Origin: an uncultured delta proteobacterium
GTDB taxonomy: Bacteria; Desulfobacterota; Binatia; UBA9968
Length of the DNA: 64,000 bases
Direction of reading: 5' to 3'
Assembly: GCA_963801935.1 (NCBI GenBank)
Contig: CAWDHA010000011.1
Span: forward strand, 25,923-89,922
Each line of letters begins with the position of its first letter. Positions within the stretch are counted from its first letter, which is position 1. Below, in pieces: positions 1,172 through 62,792 of the stretch. The position numbers were made by a program, and so were the translations under genes. The notes beneath the pieces were generated by a model. It was not told the origin of the DNA. It ran no database searches and worked only from the letters and a program-made list of their open reading frames with translations.

Positions 1172-2230
1172 ATGAGCATAGCCGCCACCGCCTATACGCC
1201 GGAAACGGTGCTCGCCGGAGAAAAGATCATCTCGGCGGATTCCCATATCATTGAGCCGGACGATCTCTGGGTTAAAAATCTGCCGCCGTCATTGAAGGGT
1301 AAGTATCCCGACTTTCCAAAGCGTAGCTCGCCCGGTGAGAAAACCGGCGGTTGGGATCCCAGGGCGCGCATCGACGAAATGGAAGTCGATGGCGTTAGCG
1401 CTGAAGTGCTTTACCCCACTCTTGGATTACGCCTTTTTGCCCTCGAAGACGCCGAGCTCCAGGAAGCTTGCTTCAAGATCGCCAACGATTGGATGATCGA
1501 TTATTGCACGGTGACGCCCGGTCGGCTGATCGGTATTCCAATGATCTCGCTGTACAACATCAAGAATGCGATCGCAGAGCTGGAGCGCTGTAAAAAAGCC
1601 GGGCTCATCGGCTGTTTGATCTGGCAGGTACCGCCCGAGCATTTACGCTTTACCAGCGATTATTATGATCCCTTTTGGGAAGCGGCGGCCAACTTGGACA
1701 TGCCGGTAAACCTGCACATCCTGACGGGTTTCAACTACAGCAGGTGGGAACGCAAGGGCCTCGACAGTTACAAGACCGCGGTGAACGATAAGTTAAACGA
1801 CGCGGCGAATAGTTTATTTGATCTGGTCTTCACCGGCGTGCTGGCGCGCTTTCCAAAGTTAAAATTGGTGTACGTCGAAAACGAATGCGCCTGGCTGCCG
1901 TTCTACATGCATGAATGGGACAAATACTATGTGCGCTTCAAAAACAGAACGCCTCTCCCATTCATGAAGAAGCTTCCAGGAGAGTACGTCGCCGAGCAGG
2001 TTTATGCGACCTTCTTTAGCGACCCTGCTGGCGGTTTGCTCATGAACCGTTACGGCCAAGATACGTTCATGTGGTCAAATGACTACCCGCACGCGGCTTC
2101 CACCTGGCCGCACTCACGCAAGGTGATCTCCGAAGAACTCGGTCATCTCCCCAAAGATGTTTTGAGAAAGGTCGTGCGCGAGAACGTCATCAAGCTCTAT
2201 AATTTAAAAATCGACGGCATCAACAACTGA
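1172..2230 (+). CDS. amidohydrolase family 2 (ACMSD/LigW-type metal-dependent hydrolase/decarboxylase)
   Basis: ATG at 1172 is preceded by GAGG. The N-terminal ...SADSHIIEPDDLW... matches the D-x-H-x metal motif, and the C-terminal ...WSNDYPH... is typical of PF04909. The upstream extension to 1109 lacks an RBS. Confidence 0.8.
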   Translation: MSIAATAYTPETVLAGEKIISADSHIIEPDDLWVKNLPPSLKGKYPDFPKRSSPGEKTGGWDPRARIDEMEVDGVSAEVLYPTLGLRLFALEDAELQEACFKIANDWMIDYCTVTPGRLIGIPMISLYNIKNAIAELERCKKAGLIGCLIWQVPPEHLRFTSDYYDPFWEAAANLDMPVNLHILTGFNYSRWERKGLDSYKTAVNDKLNDAANSLFDLVFTGVLARFPKLKLVYVENECAWLPFYMHEWDKYYVRFKNRTPLPFMKKLPGEYVAEQVYATFFSDPAGGLLMNRYGQDTFMWSNDYPHAASTWPHSRKVISEELGHLPKDVLRKVVRENVIKLYNLKIDGINN

Positions 2231-2387
2231 ACGGACGCGAATAGGACTCATTTAAGTTTTAAGGTTTTGGCCACTCCTTCGGTGGCCAAAACCTTTTCCG
2301 CTCTTCCGTCATTATTGTCAGGCTATCACCTGATCTCGCCATCGAGCTGCAGCGCTTACCGTCAATGCTCCGAAAGGAGACACTTGT

Positions 2388-3473
2388 ATGCCGATCATCG
2401 ATGCCGATACGCATGTCGATGAGACAGAAGCGACTTGGGAATACCTGCGTGATTATGAACAAGACTTCAAGCCGACCACGCAGTATCCCGGCCATGTCGA
2501 TCCCAAGCGGGCGCCGATGCGCTACTGGCTCATCGATGGTCATCGCCAGATGCGCTTTACCCGCGACGACGGCAACACGCGCACGACGGTTCAGACCCGT
2601 GAACTTTTGGACGTCCAGGCGCGTCTGCGCGATATGGACAAGATGGGCACAGAAGTCCAGGTGCTCTATCCCACCTTGTTTCTGATGGAAGCCACCGAGC
2701 GCCCCGAAGTCTCCACCGCCCTGAAGCGCAGTTATAACCACTGGCTCGCTGATCGTTGCGCCGAGTCGCGCGGCCGCCTGCGCTGGGTTTGCCTGCCGCC
2801 GCTGATGAACATGGAAGAGACCATTAAAGAGCTGCAATTCGCCAAGGACCATGGCGCCTGCGGTATTCTTAAAAAAGGCGATCTCGAAGCCGGCAAGTGG
2901 CCTGCCGATTCCTATTTCTCACCGCTTTACGAGGAAGCGAACCGCCTCGATCTGCCGATCTGCGTGCACATCGGCTCGGGCACGCCGGATTTCGTTCCCG
3001 CGCGCGAATTTTCGCTGGGCTCGTTTATGCGCTCGCAGCTCCCGACCGTGCACGCGTTTCACACGATCATCCGCCATCAACTGCCGGTCAAATATCCCAG
3101 GCTGCGCTTCGGCATTATCGAAGCGGGTTGTTCCTGGATTCCCTTCGTTGCTTGGGAATTGAAACGGCGCATGGAAAAGGCCGCAGACGGCGCCGGCACC
3201 TTCAGCCAGTTCGCGCGCTACAGCCTCTCTTCAGAATTGCTCAAGGCCAACCGCATGTATGTCACCTGCCAAGTCGACGAAGACTTGCCCTATATTCTAA
3301 AGGTCGCCGGCGAAGACAACTTGATGATCGGCTCGGACTACACGCACCGCGATTCTTCGATGGAATATGAATTCCCGCGCTTGTTAAAAGAACGCGCCGA
3401 TAACGGCGAGGTTTCCCATTTGGCGCTGCAAAAGATTCTTTACGACAATGCGAAAACTTTCTATGGATTGTGA
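2388..3473 (+). CDS. amidohydrolase family 2 (ACMSD-like)
   Basis: RBS GAAAGGAG upstream. MPIIDADTHVDETE (DxH motif); ...GSDYTHRD... C-terminal motif. Paralogous to 1172..2230. Confidence 0.8.
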   Translation: MPIIDADTHVDETEATWEYLRDYEQDFKPTTQYPGHVDPKRAPMRYWLIDGHRQMRFTRDDGNTRTTVQTRELLDVQARLRDMDKMGTEVQVLYPTLFLMEATERPEVSTALKRSYNHWLADRCAESRGRLRWVCLPPLMNMEETIKELQFAKDHGACGILKKGDLEAGKWPADSYFSPLYEEANRLDLPICVHIGSGTPDFVPAREFSLGSFMRSQLPTVHAFHTIIRHQLPVKYPRLRFGIIEAGCSWIPFVAWELKRRMEKAADGAGTFSQFARYSLSSELLKANRMYVTCQVDEDLPYILKVAGEDNLMIGSDYTHRDSSMEYEFPRLLKERADNGEVSHLALQKILYDNAKTFYGL

Positions 3474-3631
3474 GCGAAATAGGCGTTCACGAACTCTGCA
3501 CTTATGCCGATTCGTGCTAAGGCCAGCACTAACAATATTCAAAACTATCGACGATGACGCAGGATTGAGTGGCTGGATTTTACTTCATTCTGCCGCTTTC
3601 ATCCTTCTTTTTTTCTAACCACGGAGGCACT

Positions 3632-4795
3632 ATGGCCGGCGCGCTCGATGATGTTCGCGTAATTGATTTCACCCACGCTTTGAATGGGCCGTTCTGTACC
3701 ATGATGCTCGGTCACATGGGCGCGGAGATCATCAAGATCGAGCCGCCGGCGGGCGATGGTTTTCGCCGCTCGTGGATGCCGCCCGGCGCCAAAGTAGACG
3801 CCTATGAGTTCTTATGGATCAACGCTAATAAGAAGAGCGTTGCGCTGAACCTGAAAACCGAGCGCGGCGTCGAGATCGCGCGCCAGCTGATCGACCGCGC
3901 CGACGTGGTGGTAGAAAACTATCACACCGGGACGATGGAAAAATTTGGTCTCGGCTATGACACGCTGAAAGCGATCAATCCCCGGCTGATCTACGCATGC
4001 TCGCGCGGCTTTGGTGAGAGTGGACCATACAAGGATTATGGCAGCACCGCGCAAACCAACAACAGCATGACCGGCTGGACGCACACCGGATGGAGCTACA
4101 GCCGCGCGCCGGGAACCAAAGCTATCGGCATCGGCGACGAGGCCGCAGGCGTCAGCATGGTGTGCGGCATCCTCGCCGCGCTGCACGCGCGCCAACGAAC
4201 CGGCGAGGGACAGCGGATCGTCGTGTCAATGCAAGAGGCGCTACTCGGTTTTATGATCAGCGAGTTTCACGAGCATTTCTCCGGCATTGAAGTCGGCAAC
4301 TATCCTATCCCGGTTGCGGATGGTTACTTCACGCTCCGCGTACCGGATCTCAGCGACAGTGGTTGGGTCAAGCTGACGCGGCTCATGGAACGCGATGACC
4401 TAGCCGATGATGCGCGTTTCGCCAACCCTCAGACGCGCCGCCAGAATCGCTCAGAGCTCCAGGAATTGATCAAAACATGGGCGCGCGGCAAAACACGTCA
4501 CGCGCTTTGGGACGGCTTGAGAAGCATCGACTATTTTGGCGCGCCGGTTCTGTCGATGGGCGAAGTGCTGGAAGATCCGCACATCAAGGAGCGCCAAGCG
4601 TTCATCGAGCGCGATCATCCAAGCGCCGGGCCGACCAAGTTGCTGGCGCCGTGGATCCATATGTCTGAGACGCCGGCAAGCATCCGCGCCGACTCGCCTG
4701 CTCTCGGGCAACACACCGATAAAGTTTTGAGCGAAATTCTGGGCTTGAAAGCTTTTGAGCTGGCGGAACTGCGAATGCAGGGTGTGGTGACATAG
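3632..4795 (+). CDS. CoA-transferase family III (CaiB/BaiF)
   Basis: RBS GGAGG then ATG 3632. DDVRVIDFTHALNGPFCTMMLGHMGAEIIKIEPP is the canonical family-III CoA-transferase N-terminus. Length ~390 aa. Confidence 0.8.
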   Translation: MAGALDDVRVIDFTHALNGPFCTMMLGHMGAEIIKIEPPAGDGFRRSWMPPGAKVDAYEFLWINANKKSVALNLKTERGVEIARQLIDRADVVVENYHTGTMEKFGLGYDTLKAINPRLIYACSRGFGESGPYKDYGSTAQTNNSMTGWTHTGWSYSRAPGTKAIGIGDEAAGVSMVCGILAALHARQRTGEGQRIVVSMQEALLGFMISEFHEHFSGIEVGNYPIPVADGYFTLRVPDLSDSGWVKLTRLMERDDLADDARFANPQTRRQNRSELQELIKTWARGKTRHALWDGLRSIDYFGAPVLSMGEVLEDPHIKERQAFIERDHPSAGPTKLLAPWIHMSETPASIRADSPALGQHTDKVLSEILGLKAFELAELRMQGVVT

Positions 4796-4805
4796 TAGCC
4801 GTGCT

Positions 4806-4890
4806 CCAGTTTCTAGTTTCTGGTTTCAAGTTTCTCGTTTTAATCCAGGCTTCTGTTTTCCTAGAACCAGAGACCTGAAACCAGAAACTG
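4806..4890. terminator. heptad-repeat palindromic hairpin (GTTTC units) between convergent genes
   Basis: cagtttctagtttctggtttcaagtttctcg ... agaaccagagacctgaaaccagaaactgaac. The arms are reverse complements. Lies between the CoA-transferase (+) and LLM oxidoreductase (-) 3' ends. Confidence 0.5.
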
Positions 4891-4892
4891 AA

Positions 4893-5903
4893 CTAATCCG
4901 CCAAAGCTTTGATCAACCGCTCCGCCGACTCCCTGCCGCGGGGAAACGGCGCGACGATAACGCGCGTGCAGCCGGCGCTAAAATAATTATCGAGGGTGCG
5001 CCGGATATCATCACCGTTTCCGGCACCAACGAACGACGTTGCCAAAGGTTCGCTCACCTGTTCTTCAGCGCGCTCGATTTCACCTCGCGCCACTAGATCT
5101 TTTAGAGCGAGAAGCGCATCGCGATATTCCGGACGCTGAGTTTCGATCATGCGGTCCGGGTTGCCACGCAAGCGTTGTATAAAAGTAGCCCGGGCATGGC
5201 CGAGGGCCGTGGCGCGATCCTCGTGGGCGCAACACGTTGCAATGGCCGTCAATTCGAGCCGGTTCGGATCGCGTCCGGCTTTGCGGGCGGCGTCATGAAA
5301 CTGCTGCGCTGAGAAGTTGGCAATGTAGTAAGGCGATACGACGTTGGTCAATAATCCGTCGGCAATTTCGCCCGCCAGGGCCACCATGCGAGGCCGGGTA
5401 GCGCCAATGTAGATCGGCAAATCAAGCCGCGTCCGGCTGAAGCCGAGTTTGCTGTTGACGCCGGAGAAGCAGCGGCCGTCGTGAGTGAATTGCTCGGCGG
5501 TGAGGGCTTTACGCAGGAACCCGACATATTCCCGCAGCCGAGCCATCGGCGCTTCCAGTGGAATGCCATGCGCAAGATCATTCCAGGGATGGTGGCCGAC
5601 GCTCAAACCCAGGCGCACGCGACCCTGAGACAGCTCGTCCAGGGTGGCCGCCGCCATCGCTATCTGGAACGCCGAGCGGGTATAGACGTTGACGATCGCC
5701 GTGCCGACGCCTATCGATTGGGTGACCGTTGCTATGGCGGAGAGCATGGCGATCGAATCCCTGCCGATGTCTTCGTTGAGCCACATGCTTTCGAAGCCGG
5801 CGCTTTCCGCCTGCCGCGCCAGCTCGATAACATCGCGTGCCGACAATTCGCTGCCGTGGCCGTCGTCTTTAAAGTCAATGCCGATGGGCCGTTTTTGCAT
5901 CAT
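4893..5903 (-). CDS. LLM-class (luciferase-like) flavin-dependent oxidoreductase
   Basis: 336 aa. TIM-barrel LLM signatures: ...SMWLNEDIGRDS..., ...LGLSVGHHPW..., ...IYIGATRPRMVALAGEIADG... Confidence 0.7.
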   Translation of the reverse strand: MMQKRPIGIDFKDDGHGSELSARDVIELARQAESAGFESMWLNEDIGRDSIAMLSAIATVTQSIGVGTAIVNVYTRSAFQIAMAAATLDELSQGRVRLGLSVGHHPWNDLAHGIPLEAPMARLREYVGFLRKALTAEQFTHDGRCFSGVNSKLGFSRTRLDLPIYIGATRPRMVALAGEIADGLLTNVVSPYYIANFSAQQFHDAARKAGRDPNRLELTAIATCCAHEDRATALGHARATFIQRLRGNPDRMIETQRPEYRDALLALKDLVARGEIERAEEQVSEPLATSFVGAGNGDDIRRTLDNYFSAGCTRVIVAPFPRGRESAERLIKALAD

Positions 5904-9816: not shown

Positions 9817-11031
9817 TCACGGTATGTTCCGCGCCTTGCGCACGCTGGCGATCAGCGAAGTGCGCAACAAAAACTCCTTGTGTTTTTTCGGATCCTCGGC
9901 CGTGGCGCAGAGCTCATCAAAGCGCGCCTGGCGCGCTTCTGGCGCGCGCTCTTCGAGTCGCTGCTTATTGAGAATCGTTTGCTCCTGGACGAATTCGATA
10001 TTCAAGGTGCGCCGCCTGCGTGTGTAGCGGTCGAGCAACGACTGATCGGCCTGCCGCGTCACGACTTGATGAAGCGTATCTACCAGTTCCATCGCGTCGT
10101 GAATACCGCCATTGAGACCCAAGCCGCCAACCGAGTTGTTTACGTGAGCCGAGTCGCCGGCAAGAAAGACCCTGCCTTGGCGAAAAGTAGCCGCAACTCG
10201 CTGGTGCACCTTGTAGAGATTACGATGGACGACATCAAACGGCCGCTGTAAAGGGAACACACGCTGCAGCCGCGTGCAAGCGGACTCGTCGCCCAAGGCG
10301 TCTTGATCGCTTTCTTCTACTCGCGTCGGGAAGACCGCGCGCCACCGCCCCTTGCCGTCATCGCCGGCGACTTTGAAGAGATTGGTCCATTCATTCGGAT
10401 CCGCCAGATAGTTACGATAGCAGCAACCGGGTAAAAGCTCCTGGAAATCGTCCAACGTCGTCAGCACCAGGAATCGCTCCGGCCAGGTGAAGCCTTCGAA
10501 TCCGATGTCGAGTGACTTGCGTGTGGCGCTGCGGCCGCCGTCGGCGCCGATCATCCACTCGCCTTGAAACGCTTCGCTGCCGTTCGGGCCGTGGGCGGAC
10601 ACCATCACGCGATCCGCGTTTTGCTCTACTCCCGTTACTTGAGTCGAGAACCGCACAAGCGCATCAGGAAAACTCTTGAGCCGCTCGATGCCCATGCGCG
10701 CAAGTTTGTGTTGCTCGGTCTGAACCACAAATGGATAAGGTGTTTCATCGCGCAATACCTCGTGGTCGAATTCAACGATTCGTTTGCGCGCCGGCTTATC
10801 CCAAAACTGGAAATAACGCGCCACCAGGCCTGCGCCGATAAATCGGTCAATCAGGCCGACCCGGGCTATCATCTCGAGGGTTGAAGGATGAGTCGTCGCT
10901 GCGCGCGGCTTGTCGTCAATTTGCTTCTCGGCTTCCAACAAAGTCACGGCGAAGCCCTCCTGCGCGCAGGCAAGCGCTGCAACCACGCCCACTGGACCCG
11001 CGCCGGCGATAATAATCCGAGTCTTGGTCAA
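9817..11031 (-). CDS. FAD-dependent aromatic-ring monooxygenase (UbiH/salicylate-hydroxylase class)
   Basis: N-terminal IIIAGAGPVGVVAALACAQEGFAVTLLE (GxGxxG Rossmann). ...GDSAHVNNSVGGLGLNGGIHDA... (DG/GD FAD motifs). Confidence 0.8.
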   Translation of the reverse strand: MTKTRIIIAGAGPVGVVAALACAQEGFAVTLLEAEKQIDDKPRAATTHPSTLEMIARVGLIDRFIGAGLVARYFQFWDKPARKRIVEFDHEVLRDETPYPFVVQTEQHKLARMGIERLKSFPDALVRFSTQVTGVEQNADRVMVSAHGPNGSEAFQGEWMIGADGGRSATRKSLDIGFEGFTWPERFLVLTTLDDFQELLPGCCYRNYLADPNEWTNLFKVAGDDGKGRWRAVFPTRVEESDQDALGDESACTRLQRVFPLQRPFDVVHRNLYKVHQRVAATFRQGRVFLAGDSAHVNNSVGGLGLNGGIHDAMELVDTLHQVVTRQADQSLLDRYTRRRRTLNIEFVQEQTILNKQRLEERAPEARQARFDELCATAEDPKKHKEFLLRTSLIASVRKARNIP

Positions 11032-11065
11032 CTTTTATAATCCTCGGCGATACTCAAAGGATCTA

Positions 11066-11230
11066 TAGCAGCCCGTGGTGAAAGTCTGACTGCATTCGGC
11101 GCGCGATCGATCCCGGCTGGCTGCGTTGCTCCTCCCCTCAAATATCCCCCGATGTTTGGGTCGTCGCGCCTTGCCATCACGGCGCCTCGCCCGTCTCGGT
11201 GCGACGCCACACTTTCACCACGGGCTGCAG
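11066..11230 (+). mobile_element. MITE-like 165-bp element, copy 1 (20-bp TIR CAGCCCGTGGTGAAAGT.../...ACTTTCACCACGGGCTG)
   Basis: ~90% identical to five other copies in the window, with terminal inverted repeats. Sits in the divergent promoter region between the FAD monooxygenase and the MFS gene. Confidence 0.6.
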
Positions 11231-11379
11231 TCACTACCATGGAGTTGCGACTGCTGACAATCGCCGTGCTCTCTCTGATGAGAATGCATGAGCCTATTTT
11301 ATGGTAACTCCAGCAAAATCCTGCTACTATCAGTGGTTCAGCTTCTTATCTCGCGCCTTATCCGAAAGCAAAAATTTCT

Positions 11380-37510: not shown

Positions 37511-37552
37511 GCAGCGGCGGGCTCGTTGCAGATTGTCGGGACTAGCAGCCCG

Positions 37553-37707
37553 GGGTGAAAGTGTGGCGTCGCACCGAGACGGGAGAGGCGCCTTGATGGC
37601 AAGGCGCGACGACCGAGGATATTGGGGAATATTTGAGGGGAGGAGCAACGCAGCGGACGGGGATCGATCGCCCGTCGAATGCAATCAGGCTTTCACACGG
37701 ACTGCTA
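37553..37707 (-). mobile_element. MITE-like 165-bp element, copy 2 (inverted orientation); its terminal CTAG supplies the dnaJ stop codon
   Basis: Reverse complement matches the family consensus. Overlaps the DnaJ stop at 37705-37707. Confidence 0.6.
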
Positions 37708-38826
37708 GAGCCGCACGTCTTTGCGCACGTCCTCGTTGTATGCCTGGTCGATTTTCTCGATCACATCGCGCTCGAGGTTTTGCCTGGGTATGCGGATCAT
37801 GAGACGCAGAAATAAATCTCCCGCGGTAGTTTGTCCATGCCCGGCGACTCCCTTGCTCTTGATGCGCAGTTGCTGGCCGCTTTGCGCGCCGGCTGGCACT
37901 TTGACTTTGATCGTACCGCTCGGCGTCGGCACTTCGACCTCAGCGCCGCTTATGGCTTCGCCAACCGTGATCGGCAGCTCCATCGTCAAATCTCTTCCCG
38001 AGCGCGTGAGCACGGGATGCGGCCGGATACGCGGCGTGATGTAAAGGTCGCCGGCTTCGCCGCCGCGAATCCCCGCTTCACCCTTGCCGCGCAGACGAAT
38101 CTGCTTAGCGGGATCGGCTCCGGGCGGAATATTGACGCGGATCGTGTCCGGTCGCATCAAGCGGCCGCGACCACCGCACCTGGCACAGCTCTCGCCGGGC
38201 CAATGCCCGGTCCCGGCACAGCGCGCGCAGGTTTGGCGAAAATGCAGCGACCGGTCAGCCGGCGCTTTAGTGCCGCTGCCATGGCACTCGGGACAAGTGC
38301 TCGGTGCCTTCTTAGCTTGGCCGCCGGCGCCGCCGCAGGTATCGCAGGCAACGAGCCGTTCCACTGTGAGCGAAGTCTGAAAGCCGCGCACGGCGTCGAG
38401 AAAATCGATGTCCATATTCGAGCGGATGTCTTGACCACGAATCGGGCCGTTTTGCGCTCGCGTGCCGCGGCCAAACATGCCGCCAAGACCGCCGAAAAAA
38501 TCGCTGAGATCATCCGGGCTGAATTCGTACGCGCCCCCTGAGCGCGCCGACTGCTGCCGGCCTTGCTGATAGCTCCGCGCCTGCTCCGCGTCAAAGCCGG
38601 CGGCGCAGCCGGCTGCGCCAAATTCATCGTAGAGCTTGCGCTTCTTTTCGTCGCCGAGGACATCGTAGGCAACCGACAGCTCCTTGAACTTGCTCTCGGC
38701 GTCTTTGTTTCCGGGATTGGTGTCAGGGTGGTACTTACGCGCGAGCTTGCGATAGGCTTTGCGGATTTCCTCGCGCCCGGCGCCGCGCTTTACGCCGAGG
38801 ATTTGATAATAATCTCGGTCTGCCAT
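37705..38826 (-). CDS. dnaJ: molecular chaperone DnaJ
   Basis: J-domain [33 protein letters not shown]-rich linker, and four CxxCxGxG zinc-finger repeats ([32 protein letters not shown]). Confidence 0.85.
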
Positions 38827-47145: not shown

Positions 47146-47380
47146 GTTCTCCTCCTAAAGAGAATGTTAAGGTCTCGCGCCTGGGAACCGGATGGCTAAG
47201 GGAGCAGAACATGAAATTCAAAACCACGCTCTGATCGGGGATGTCCTATAGAAATCTTTCTCTAGGTGAGACGTAATCGGCCTTCGATTTTTCGTTTCCT
47301 TTATTCAGAAGGCCCTTTACTGAAGTAAGTATCACCACGTTACGTTGATTGTCGCCATGTGTCAACTGACGAGGTTAAGG

Positions 47381-47546
47381 TAGCAGCCCGTGGTGAAAGT
47401 CTGACTGCATTCGACGGGCGATGCATCCCCGTTGGCTGCGTTGCTCCTCGCTCAAATATTCCCCGATATTCTCGGTCGTCGCGCCTTGCCATCAGGGCGC
47501 CTCGCCCGTCTCGGTGCGACGCCACACTTTCACCACGGGCTGCTAG
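47381..47546 (+). mobile_element. MITE-like 165-bp element, copy 3
   Basis: Full-length copy with intact 20-bp TIRs, flanked by GTAG/CTAG. Confidence 0.6.
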
Positions 47547-47669
47547 GCTCGTTTATTAATAGGCGGCGAATCGCTCCACTCGAATGACAAAAAGCAGCGA
47601 TTCGCCGCCTCTCGAGCGTAGTTATTTCGTTCCGCCCATGGTAGCCTGCGGCACGAAGGAGAAATAAAA

Positions 47670-53535: not shown

Positions 53536-55225
53536 GTGCTTCTCAATTACACCCCGGTTTCGTTGGCCTTTGGCACCAGCGGTTTGCGCGGCTTGGTCAA
53601 AGATATCACTGACCTTGAAGCATATATCAATGTCAAAGCGGCTCTCTGTTATTTCCTGCGGAGCGGCGCCATGGGCGGGCGCGGCGGCGTTATCATCGCC
53701 GGCGACCTGCGGCCAAGCACCGATCGCATCATGCGCGCCTGCGCCCAGGCGATCGGCGACTCGGCATTACAGGTCGAAAACGCCGGCAAAATCCCCACCC
53801 CGGCGTTGATTGCTCACGCCATGTCTAGCGGGCGCGCCGGCGTGATGGTCAGCGGCAGCCATATTCCCTTTGATCGCAACGGTATCAAGCTCAACAAGAG
53901 CGCCGGCGAAGTCCTGAAAGAGGAGGAACCGGGCATCATGCGCGAGGTCGAGCGAGTACGCGCCGAGGAGTACGGCAAGAATGAAGCTGACTCGCTGTTC
54001 GATCTCTGCGGCATGCTCAAGCGTCCACCGGAACTGCCGCCGCTTAATCGCGGCGCTGAAAAATCATACATCGAGCGCTATTTGACGAGCTTCAGCCGGG
54101 GCGGCCTCTCGGGCGTGCGTGTTCTTGTCTATCAACACTCGGCCGTCGGCCGGGACATCTTATCGGATATTCTACGCGAGCTTGGCGCCGATGTGGTCAG
54201 CGCCGGGCGCAGTGAGACGTTCGTTCCGATCGATACTGAGAACATTACCGACGAGCAGCTGGATCGACTTGAAGAATTAGCCGTCGACGCCGAAGCCGGC
54301 GGCCGGCCGCTGGACGCAATCGTGTCCACCGACGGTGACTCCGATCGGCCCCTGGTAACGGCACTGCTGCGTGCCGCCGAGGTCCAGCCGGGCATGCGGC
54401 GCGTGCGCTTTTTACCCGGCGACCTGCTCGGCATCGCCGTCGCCGAATATCTGCGCGCCGACGGCGCCGCGGTTCCAATCAGTGCCAACGATGCCGTCGA
54501 GCGACGCCTGCGCCAGCGTGGCATTTATCTCGATAAGACTAAAATCGGCTCGCCTTACGTTGTCGCCGCTCTGGAGGAGCTGCGCCGTGCCGGGACGCAC
54601 GCACGCATCGTCGGCTGGGAAGCCAACGGTGGGTTCTTGACCGGCAGCGATATCGCTCTCTCTGCGGGGCCTTTGCGCGCGCTACCGACGCGCGACGCTA
54701 CGTTGCCGATCCTGGCGAACTTGTTCGCTGCGGCCGAGCAGCGCAGCGGATTGGCGGCATTGTGGGACCGACTGCCGGCTCGCTATGGTCGCGCCGGCTT
54801 GCTCGATAACGTGCCGGTCGGCGTAAGTCAGGCCATCCTCTCTCATCTGATTCCAGCCGGCGAGACAACCGAGGTTGCGTTCGACGCCACAACCGGAGGC
54901 GTGTTCGACCCGAACCGGGCGGCCACGATGCCTACCTTGCTCGCCGAACCGGCGGCCAGAGAATGGCAGCGCTTGAGAGCGAGCTTAAGCGATTTCTTTA
55001 GCGCCGCGCTCGGATTCGATGGCGATCGCGCGAATCAATGTACTCGACGGCGTGCGCGTCTATTTTCACAACGGCGACGTCGCCCATGTCCGGCCGTCGG
55101 GGAACGCGCCGCAACTGCGCATCTACGCCAACAGCGATTCCCAAGCGCGCGCCGATCGCATCGTCGAGTTTGCGCTCCGCGAACCCGACGGCATTCTGCG
55201 TCAACTGGAGCGCGCTTTCACCTAG
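53536..55225 (+). CDS. alpha-D-phosphohexomutase (phosphomannomutase/phosphoglucomutase), one frameshift near 55020
   Basis: GTG start with GGAGGAGGG RBS. Active-site loop SGSHIPFDRNG. Mg loop STDGDSDRP. C-terminus ...IARINVLDGVRVYFHNGDVAHVRPSGNAPQLRIY... is recovered in a +1 frame. Stop TAG is provided by the adjacent MITE copy. Confidence 0.75.
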
Positions 55226-55387
55226 CAGCCCGTGGTGAAAGTCTGACTGCATTCGACTTGTGATCGATCCCCGTTGGCTGCGTTGCTCCTCCGCTCAAAT
55301 ATTCTCCGATATTCTCGGTCGTCGCGCCTTGCCATCAGGGCGCCTCGCCCGTCTCGGTGCGACGCCACACTTTCACCACGGCTGCTA
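55223..55387 (+). mobile_element. MITE-like 165-bp element, copy 4 (CTAG...CTAG flanks)
   Basis: Full-length. Its first TAG is the pgm stop codon. Confidence 0.6.
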
Positions 55388-55450
55388 GCTGGCGGCGACG
55401 ACATTTTTCGAGCATCGATATTTTCATTGGCACCGGATAAAGAGCCGTCA

Positions 55451-55990
55451 TCACAAGGATTTCTTTTCGGCCAGTGCGGCAATGGCGTCCAGGAGAGTTA
55501 ACAGGCGCACCGGTTTGACTAGATGAAGGTCAAAACCTGCTTCACGTGTGCGTTCGCGGTCCTCATCCCGGCCCCATCCGGTCAGGGCGACAATGATCAT
55601 CCTTTCTCCCCAGGGCTGTTCGCGCATGCGGCGGCAGGCGTCGTAACCGTTGAGTTTCGGCATGCCAAGATCGAGCAACACCACGTCGGGGAGAAATCTT
55701 TCCGCGGTCAGCACTGCAGCTTCTCCATCGTGCGCTAGCTGAACGGCGCTTCCTTTCAGCCGAAACAACGTTGCCAACATCTCCGCAGCGGCGCGATTAT
55801 CGTCGACCACCAGAACTCTCAATTCTTCGACGATAAGCCGGTGCGCCGAGCCGGTAAATGTTCTCATGGATTGCGCGGCCGGCGGTTGCTCGGGCAGCGG
55901 CAAGCGGATCGTAAACTCACGCCTTTGCCGCCTTCTTCACTTTTTGTTTTGACATTGCCTTTCAATAGATCGTCAACAAGTCGGCCCATA
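55451..55990 (-). pseudogene. remnant of a hybrid sensor histidine kinase (last ~30 aa of HATPase_c + complete REC domain)
   Basis: RLVDDLLKGNVKTKSEEGGKGSEFTIRLPLP matches the HATPase_c C-terminus (...[28 protein letters not shown]) after a 1-nt shift. Then receiver VLVVDDN...VLLDLGMPKLNGYD...VALTGW. No DHp or sensor domain lies upstream. Confidence 0.5.
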
Positions 55991-60564: not shown

Positions 60565-60680
60565 GATAGCCTCCAGTTTCAAGCGCTTAGAAGGTTGCGG
60601 TTGAGATTTGAATACAAACGACTAATCGCACTATCGACAGGCAAGTTTCAAGCAGGGCAATGTCAAAGTCATTTGCACCT

Positions 60681-60844
60681 TAGCAGCCCGTGGTGAAAGT
60701 CTGACTGCATTCGACGGGCGATCGATCCCCGTTGGCCGCGTTGCTCCTCGTTCAAATATTCCCGATATTTCTCGGTCGTCGCCTTGCCATCGGGGCGCCT
60801 CGCCCGTCTCGGTGCGACGCCACACTTTCACCACAGGCTGTTAG
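60681..60844 (+). mobile_element. MITE-like 165-bp element, copy 5 (TTAG...TTAG flanks)
   Basis: Full-length. Identical TTAG on both sides, consistent with a 4-bp target-site duplication. Confidence 0.6.
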
Positions 60845-62528: not shown

Positions 62529-62634
62529 AGCGATAACCCGCCCTCAGAAGTCTGCAAACTGGCACTGCCCGATGGTTTTCATCTCTTGGAAATAACAGCA
62601 GTCCGTAAGCTGTCGCAAAATAGCTAGCAGCCCG

Positions 62635-62792
62635 TGGTGAAAGTCTGACGACATTCGACGGGCGATCGATGCCCGTTGGCTGTGTTGCTCCTCCGCTCAA
62701 ATATTCCGCGATATTCTAAGGTCGTCGCGCCTTGCCATCAGGGCGCCTCGCCCGTCTCGGTGCGATGCCACACTTTCACCATGGACTGCTAG
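62635..62792 (+). mobile_element. MITE-like 165-bp element, copy 6 (CTAG...CTAG flanks)
   Basis: Full-length with a few substitutions. Confidence 0.6.

Follow-up and report, generated by a model that had tools for sequence, protein, structure and literature searches.

The six related repeats dispersed over the analysed DNA, a stretch of 64,000 nucleotides referred to below as the window, very probably represent a type II MITE: a cut-and-paste transposon of about 158 bp, non-autonomous, that has IS5/IS1182-like ends and inserts at CTAG. This reading rests on the repeat family itself, its terminal inverted repeat (TIR), a direct 4-bp target-site duplication (TSD), matching insertion sequences (ISs) in other genomes, the domains of the transposases that they encode, and covariation within a long hairpin. 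A MITE-like nature had been proposed in a preliminary description made from the sequence alone, and it is supported by the small size of the element, the lack of a conserved ORF, the TIRs, the direct duplication, and the dispersal of copies among unrelated flanks.

BLASTN with copy 1 as query detects six full-length copies in the window at 88-92% identity, and a profile HMM based on 44 members of the family retrieves the same six window copies and nothing else, fragments included. Both searches bear out the six-copy family initially described, and its density, six copies per 64 kb, holds within the window. Without the TSD, the elements of the window measure 157-161 bp (Table 1). All six loci had been correctly located from the start, with the beginnings of copies 2 and 6 misplaced by 7-11 bp. 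When the copies are aligned with 30 bp of flank on each side, sequence similarity starts and stops sharply and the flanks are unrelated. The interiors are 83-94% identical from copy to copy and 88-98% identical to the window consensus, copy 3 being the nearest to it (97.6%). Copy 2 is the only one of the six on the opposite strand, and this shared orientation of five copies is not statistically remarkable at n=6. Equally unremarkable at this sample size is the presence of four of the six copies in the last 17 kb (sites at 11, 37.5, 47, 55, 60.7 and 62.6 kb).

Table 1. Coordinates of the MITE copies of the window and of two sets of related elements on other contigs. Spans of the window copies include the 4-bp flanks.
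Feature	Locus	Span	Element proper	Strand	Flanks	Context
MITE copy 1	window	11065-11231	11069-11227 (159 bp)	+	ATAG / CAGT (decayed TSD)	divergent intergenic region, 38 nt to FAD-monooxygenase gene start, 153 nt to MFS transporter gene
MITE copy 2	window	37542-37708	37546-37704	-	CTAG / CTAG	convergent neighbours, solute-binding protein gene and dnaJ
MITE copy 3	window	47380-47546	47384-47542	+	GTAG / CTAG	upstream of RRM-domain protein gene
MITE copy 4	window	55222-55388	55226-55384	+	CTAG / CTAG	convergent neighbours, phosphoglucomutase-like gene and response regulator gene
MITE copy 5	window	60680-60844	60684-60840 (157 bp)	+	TTAG / TTAG	between cupin gene and TctC-like gene
MITE copy 6	window	62624-62792	62628-62788 (161 bp)	+	CTAG / CTAG	between 175-aa ORF and endonuclease/exonuclease/phosphatase-family gene
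270-284-bp family	L081	1221-1491				
270-284-bp family	L102	583-853				
270-284-bp family	L095	2931-3200				
270-284-bp family	L115	1811-2080				
270-284-bp family	L116	5442-5725				
202-354-bp derivative	L001	111-394				
202-354-bp derivative	L096	2632-2985				
202-354-bp derivative	L031	6552-6754				
202-354-bp derivative	L066	1065-1360				
202-354-bp derivative	L112	3647-3848				

The 17-nt inverted repeat CAGCCCGTGGTGAAAGT, or CAGCCCGTGGTGAAAGT(C) in its 18-bp version, delimits every copy. The window holds 10 matches to this terminal 17-mer at up to three mismatches, for 0.13 expected from dinucleotide shuffles. The inverted repeat, first described as 20 bp long and perfect, is thus real but has a true length of 17-18 bp and is perfect at both ends only in the copies starting at 11069 and 47384. 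In the remaining four, one end or both depart from it by one or two mismatches or by the loss of a nucleotide, the latter being seen in the right terminal repeat of copy 4. A length of 20-21 bp is only apparent: the CTAG duplicated on either side is palindromic, so that part of it looks like an extension of the inverted repeat.

Indeed, the CTAG beside each end is a 4-bp direct TSD located outside the inverted repeat. In the window, three copies are flanked by CTAG on both sides, one by TTAG on both sides, one by GTAG and CTAG, and one by the decayed pair ATAG/CAGT. The TTAG pair of copy 5 is a matched direct duplication that is not palindromic. As several of these TSDs have decayed, the insertions are not recent. 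GTDB genome contigs were scanned for the 17-mer, yielding at least 116 loci, and the window together with the 116 listed genome loci provided 79 elements with the repeat in inverted orientation. Among these listed matches and the window, the 4-bp flanks on the two sides are identical in 41 of the 79 elements, with 30 pairs of CTAG, four of CTAA, two of TTAG, and one each of TCAG, GTAA, ATAA, TTAA and CTAC. Ten of these 41 pairs are non-palindromic direct repeats, and none of the 79 elements has flanks that are inverted without being direct. For the pairs with CTAG in neither flank, 11 out of 25 are identical, versus 1.9 expected when partners are shuffled. A target of CTAG/CTAA type is that of IS5.

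The tetramer CTAG is 4-fold under-represented in the window (58 occurrences observed versus 239 expected, a ratio of 0.24) and forms with GGGG the two most under-represented tetramers. Many of these 58 occurrences fall at the ends of ORFs, and seven of the 58 are MITE duplications. As proposed in the preliminary description, all six copies are intergenic, each lying between Pfam-supported genes, with two edge cases at the stop of dnaJ (copy 2) and at ORF 53536-55263 (copy 4). The TAG stop of dnaJ (37705-37707, minus strand) falls within the duplicated target of copy 2, and the TAG stop of a gene is found inside the TSD in about 16 of 44 MITEs according to a rough gene call. CTAG being rare and often overlapping TAG stops, insertions would be directed to intergenic positions adjacent to stop codons. 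Target availability seems enough to explain the intergenic location, and selection removing disruptive insertions probably contributes as well.

Some listed ORFs overlap the repeats. Those at 37533-37802 (plus strand, 89 aa) and 55222-55482 (minus strand, 86 aa) span copies 2 and 4, respectively, and most likely reflect spurious translation of the repeat. The phosphoglucomutase-like ORF 53536-55263, listed mechanically, runs 38 nt into copy 4 and ends with a stretch of ~40 residues, rich in Arg, that seems to be out of frame. When copy 4 is removed in silico, this ORF lengthens to 600 aa and no obvious stop is restored. Stretches of about 160 bp of this kind are liable to be mistranslated by gene callers, as illustrated by the first two ORFs and by the tail of the third.

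The element had been regarded as too small to encode a transposase and as necessarily mobilised in trans, and a search of ISfinder for an IS with matching termini had been proposed. Such a search succeeded on the GTDB genome contigs and gives the proposal a concrete form, as ISs of 1.44-1.54 kb located elsewhere share the 17-nt terminus and the CTAG duplication and encode a DDE transposase. Three size classes are seen among the TIR-bounded elements: over 40 of them cluster tightly at 157-161 bp, others are spread between 200 and 350 bp, and a last class measures 1442-1535 bp. Among the matches listed, at least 16 elements of this last class, all in other genomes, combine the same left repeat with the same CTAG-type TSD. 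They encode a single DDE transposase of 408-462 aa whose DUF772 and DDE_Tnp_1 domains pass the Pfam cut-offs. Locus L039 carries two identical IS copies of 1535 bp with CTAG on their flanks, both coding for a protein of 462 aa. These two copies (1426-4712) are 209 bp apart, and the next gene (4738-5847) codes for an IS630-family transposase (274 bits for a cut-off of 100), so that L039 looks like a transposon-rich spot. Homologues of the partner transposase at 53-61% identity occur in about twenty loci among the matches listed, and none is found in the 64-kb window.

The nature of this transposase also bears on another origin of the repeats. CTAG is the classic IS630 target, and the alignment of the six window copies, with TA at both ends of every copy, suggested an IS630/Tc1-mariner-derived MITE for which only the central TA of the CTAG target would be duplicated, the outer C and G belonging to the target and TAG/CTA to the inverted repeat. 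The IS630-family gene adjoining the ISs of L039 could be read in the same direction. However, all four bases are duplicated directly, as seen in the pairs CTAA/CTAA, GTAA/GTAA, TTAG/TTAG, CTAC/CTAC and ATAA/ATAA, and the elements with this terminus encode the DUF772 and DDE_Tnp_1 transposase, not an IS630-type enzyme. The four-base direct TSDs and the transposase type rule out a TA duplication of the IS630 type, and a derivation from this family is considered extremely improbable.

ISs of the IS5 group and of the IS1182 family are 1.3-1.65 kb long, with inverted repeats of 16-18 bp and 4-bp direct repeats (PMC3281130, Table 2). The partner IS displays the same architecture in terms of its one ORF, length, inverted repeat and 4-bp direct repeat. 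As in IS5, ISPha2 and ISPmar3 of the IS5 group and ISPse1 of IS1182, this single ORF encodes a DDE enzyme with DUF772 and DDE_Tnp_1. Among the NCBIfam models, the L039 transposase best matches IS1182 (157 bits for a cut-off of 270), followed by IS5_4 (89 bits for 140), and the same ranking is obtained for three more transposases from Vicinamibacterales, Thermoanaerobaculia and Gemmatimonadales MAGs. Six transposases were scored in all, five of them associated with the 17-mer terminus (L039, L008, L013 and L083) or with a related one (L197, plasmid pLB1). None of the six reaches the cut-off of the IS1182 equivalog model NF033551 (157-180 bits for 270) or those of the IS5 models (76-99 bits for 140 with IS5_4, and lower scores with the others). 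In this respect, the partner IS differs from both IS5 and IS1182 and sits between the two named families. It is thus best placed in the IS5/IS1182 superfamily and nearest to IS1182, a placement that is approximate because the scores fall below both curated cut-offs and that implies no membership of either named family.

A relative of the partner IS is carried by plasmids. On pLB1 (L197, AB244976.1), an IS of about 1.46 kb at 538-2004 has the inverted repeat CAGGCCGTTGACGAAGTCGG and CTAA on both flanks. Its transposase, annotated as belonging to the IS5 family, is 50% identical at the amino acid level to the partner transposase over 94% of its length, and the same protein is found on pCHQ1 (NC_014007.1) of Sphingobium indicum UT26S and on other plasmids. 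The two ISs thus resemble each other by this identity, by related inverted repeats and by their 4-bp duplication, CTAA in the plasmid element, whereas their terminal repeats differ at 5 of 20 positions and the hosts of the plasmid element are Alphaproteobacteria. The plasmid collection yielded no homologue of the MITE. Three IMG/VR contigs contain the exact 17-mer with CTA-like flanks (L199 at 3102-3118, L200 at 9902-9918 and L201 at 97-113), and neither the MITE core nor the transposase was detected on them. They may be other elements sharing the terminus or chance matches.

The two ends of the full-length ISs are not equivalent. The left repeat, which lies upstream of the transposase gene, matches the 18-mer CAGCCCGTGGTGAAAGTC perfectly in nearly all of them, whereas the right repeat usually differs from it at one to three positions; the MITE has the left-type repeat at both ends. 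Comparison of the MITE with 15 full-length ISs reveals similarity confined to the terminus, the interiors being unrelated. A deletion derivative of a sampled IS is ruled out, as similarity stops at the TIR. In type II MITEs, similarity to the autonomous IS is confined to the TIRs (PMC10969869). The present element is assigned to this type as its interior matches no IS interior.

From these sequence comparisons, a mode of spread can be proposed. The IS left terminal repeat CAGCCCGTGGTGAAAGTC is present at the two MITE ends as inverted copies of 17-18 bp, to which the transposase produced by a full-length IS elsewhere in the cell would bind. The bound enzyme would excise the MITE and insert it into a CTAG-like tetranucleotide, the duplication of which would yield the 4-bp TSD, and the copies that survive would be those sitting between genes, often exactly at a stop codon. 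The interior has a source other than the sampled ISs; it is of fixed length and able to form one long imperfect hairpin. The partner transposase is the likely agent mobilising this MITE, and a source of it presumably exists, or existed, in the genome of the window. Among the 82 genomes behind the matches listed, each represented by one to four loci, the MITE occurs in 34, the IS in 14, and both in a single one (CBDCVL01), a rarity that speaks against the pairing but comes from a sampling too shallow for interpretation.

Intergenic, palindromic and multi-copy sequences also evoke REP/BIME-like extragenic palindromes, spread by a RAYT (IS200/IS605-like, HUH) or maintained by the host, which would make the repeats no derivative of a DDE element. 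REPs are defined as palindromes of 20-40 bp with a GTAG or CGTC head (PMC3733652). The element of the window is 158 bp long and has no such head, it possesses TSDs while REPs do not, and its termini are identical to those of ISs encoding a DDE transposase. Hardly any weight is therefore given to this interpretation.

Besides its ends, the MITE is characterized by its interior. The preliminary description had pointed out that the whole unit could fold into a single hairpin, and this is real: for copy 3 together with the duplications on its two sides (47379-47547), the folding energies of the two strands are -86 and -98 kcal/mol, with z scores of -7.9 and -9.4. Across 33 copies of the Acidobacteriota type, each from a different genome, a full-length hairpin of 46 pairs is 95.1% paired. 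Compensatory changes affect 23 of the 46 pairs, with 160 cells changed on both sides, values reached by none of 500 shuffles; slid controls give at most 34 cells, 5-fold fewer. Conservation exceeds that of the stems in several unpaired motifs: GCGTTGC and GCGCCTTG, read in the orientation of alignment A2 and persisting even in diverged subfamilies, and GCACCGAGAC and GTCGAATGC on the other strand. The centre of the hairpin is AT-rich, with compensatory variants. No conserved ORF is present in the aligned copies, in which gaps are not multiples of three and no start codon is conserved. It is concluded that hairpin potential and length are maintained. Maintenance may act on DNA through the quality of the transposition substrate, on RNA, or via arm-to-arm correction within the palindrome.

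Such features could also be expected from a structured RNA gene or an RNA regulatory module, such as an sRNA, an mRNA-stabilising hairpin or a terminator, with inverted ends being a part of the RNA structure. The strong fold on both strands, the pairing and compensatory changes given above for 33 copies (95% of cells paired, 23 of 46 pairs, none of 500 shuffles) and the conservation of the unpaired motifs are in line with this proposal, as is the better fold of one strand in 43 of 44 copies as judged by MFE, a difference that may simply reflect the G-richness of that strand. However, an apparent strand-specific RNA structure, deduced from an asymmetry between G:U and A:C, proved to be an artefact of the prediction step, vanishing under control for prediction bias in strand-neutral counts. 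The Rfam check that had been suggested gave no match for the window at gathering thresholds, and a permissive search with one copy returned at best a plant miRNA hairpin model (E = 0.35). The orientation of the copies relative to neighbouring genes is unbiased (++ 8, -- 7, convergent 8, divergent 4), no promoter-like site occurs within the element, and the sole terminator-like match only overlaps its last 8 bp before continuing into the flank. Moreover, an RNA leaves unexplained the direct 4-bp duplications and the termini shared with transposase-encoding elements. A purely RNA-based explanation is thus quite unlikely, and an RNA function would be at best an added layer over a MITE and not an alternative to it.

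A broader proposal combines both aspects. The 158-bp core could be a structurally selected module, an obligate fixed-length hairpin with conserved loops, kept in master copies across several phyla either as a better substrate for mobilisation in trans or as an RNA hairpin useful or harmless at gene ends, and spread by an IS5/IS1182-like transposase. As a substrate, the core might bring the two left-end-type termini together or recruit a host DNA-bending factor at its AT-rich centre. This proposal is put forward as a speculative one, with a rather low probability.

The family extends beyond the window. Full-length homologous copies of about 158 bp, at 74-91% identity, are present in many Acidobacteriota MAGs, chiefly Vicinamibacterales, the nearest among the matches listed being those of L098, L092 and L106. 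Diverged subfamilies, which share these termini and this length while most of the interior is different, are found in Planctomycetota and Myxococcota-like MAGs. Their carriers are Planctomycetota MAGs (L057, L060, L071, L086, L089 and L094), a Kofleriaceae MAG (L075), a Thermoanaerobaculia MAG (L003) and a "delta proteobacterium" MAG (L029). The agreement between subfamilies and taxonomic labels speaks against contamination during binning. Lone 17-mer matches were discarded for defining the host range, as about 70 exact chance matches are expected in 596 Gb; one unpaired match sits within an ORF of 1042 aa.

Identity to the window consensus is 88-98% for the window copies and at most 87% for copies from other genomes, which is consistent with amplification within the window lineage followed by decay. 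No MITE was found in 80 metagenome loci of relatives (800 kb, with 80-90% amino acid identity at one window gene), so the family is patchy even among relatives. L123 displays the syntenic TctC-cupin spacer devoid of the MITE and is too diverged to be aligned with base precision. The same divergence applies to the 80 relatives' loci, among which no clean empty site was found.

Known type II MITEs, such as Correia/NEMIS of Neisseria, RUP of S. pneumoniae and QMITE of Coxiella, are comparable to the present family. All are non-coding elements of about 100-400 bp with TIRs and TSDs, intergenic and multi-copy, with a very stable predicted stem-loop and a similarity to their presumed IS restricted to the TIRs. 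The window MITE differs from Correia, RUP and QMITE by its TIR sequence, its 4-bp CTAG-type TSD and its GC-rich rather than AT-rich composition, as well as by its presumed IS5/IS1182 partner and its hosts, mainly uncultured soil Acidobacteriota. Correia and RUP duplicate TA. For QMITE, the DRs are of 7-9 bp (PMC10969869). No description of a 158-bp MITE family of this kind was found in the literature. The family appears to be undescribed, while being an ordinary kind of element, widespread and mostly found in Acidobacteriota.

This family leaves the current understanding of transposons unchanged. Its interest lies in its spread within uncultured soil phyla, in the targeting of CTAG adjacent to stop codons and in an unusually clean covariation of a MITE interior. 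It brings together a poorly classified group of IS5/IS1182-like ISs and a non-autonomous element in soil phyla that are abundant and uncultured, and it illustrates how a CTAG target would confine insertions to intergenic sites beside stop codons. In practice, it breaks short-read assemblies of soil Acidobacteriota. With its dozens of copies that have diverged at constant length and with compensatory changes, the family also constitutes a natural data set on the conservation of MITE hairpins.

Other non-autonomous elements share these ends (Table 1). Longer derivatives of the 158-bp MITE, from 202 to 354 bp, keep both end segments and contain extra internal sequence. A second non-autonomous family of 270-284 bp, present in Terriglobia and other Acidobacteriota MAGs, combines the same 17-nt termini with an unrelated interior.
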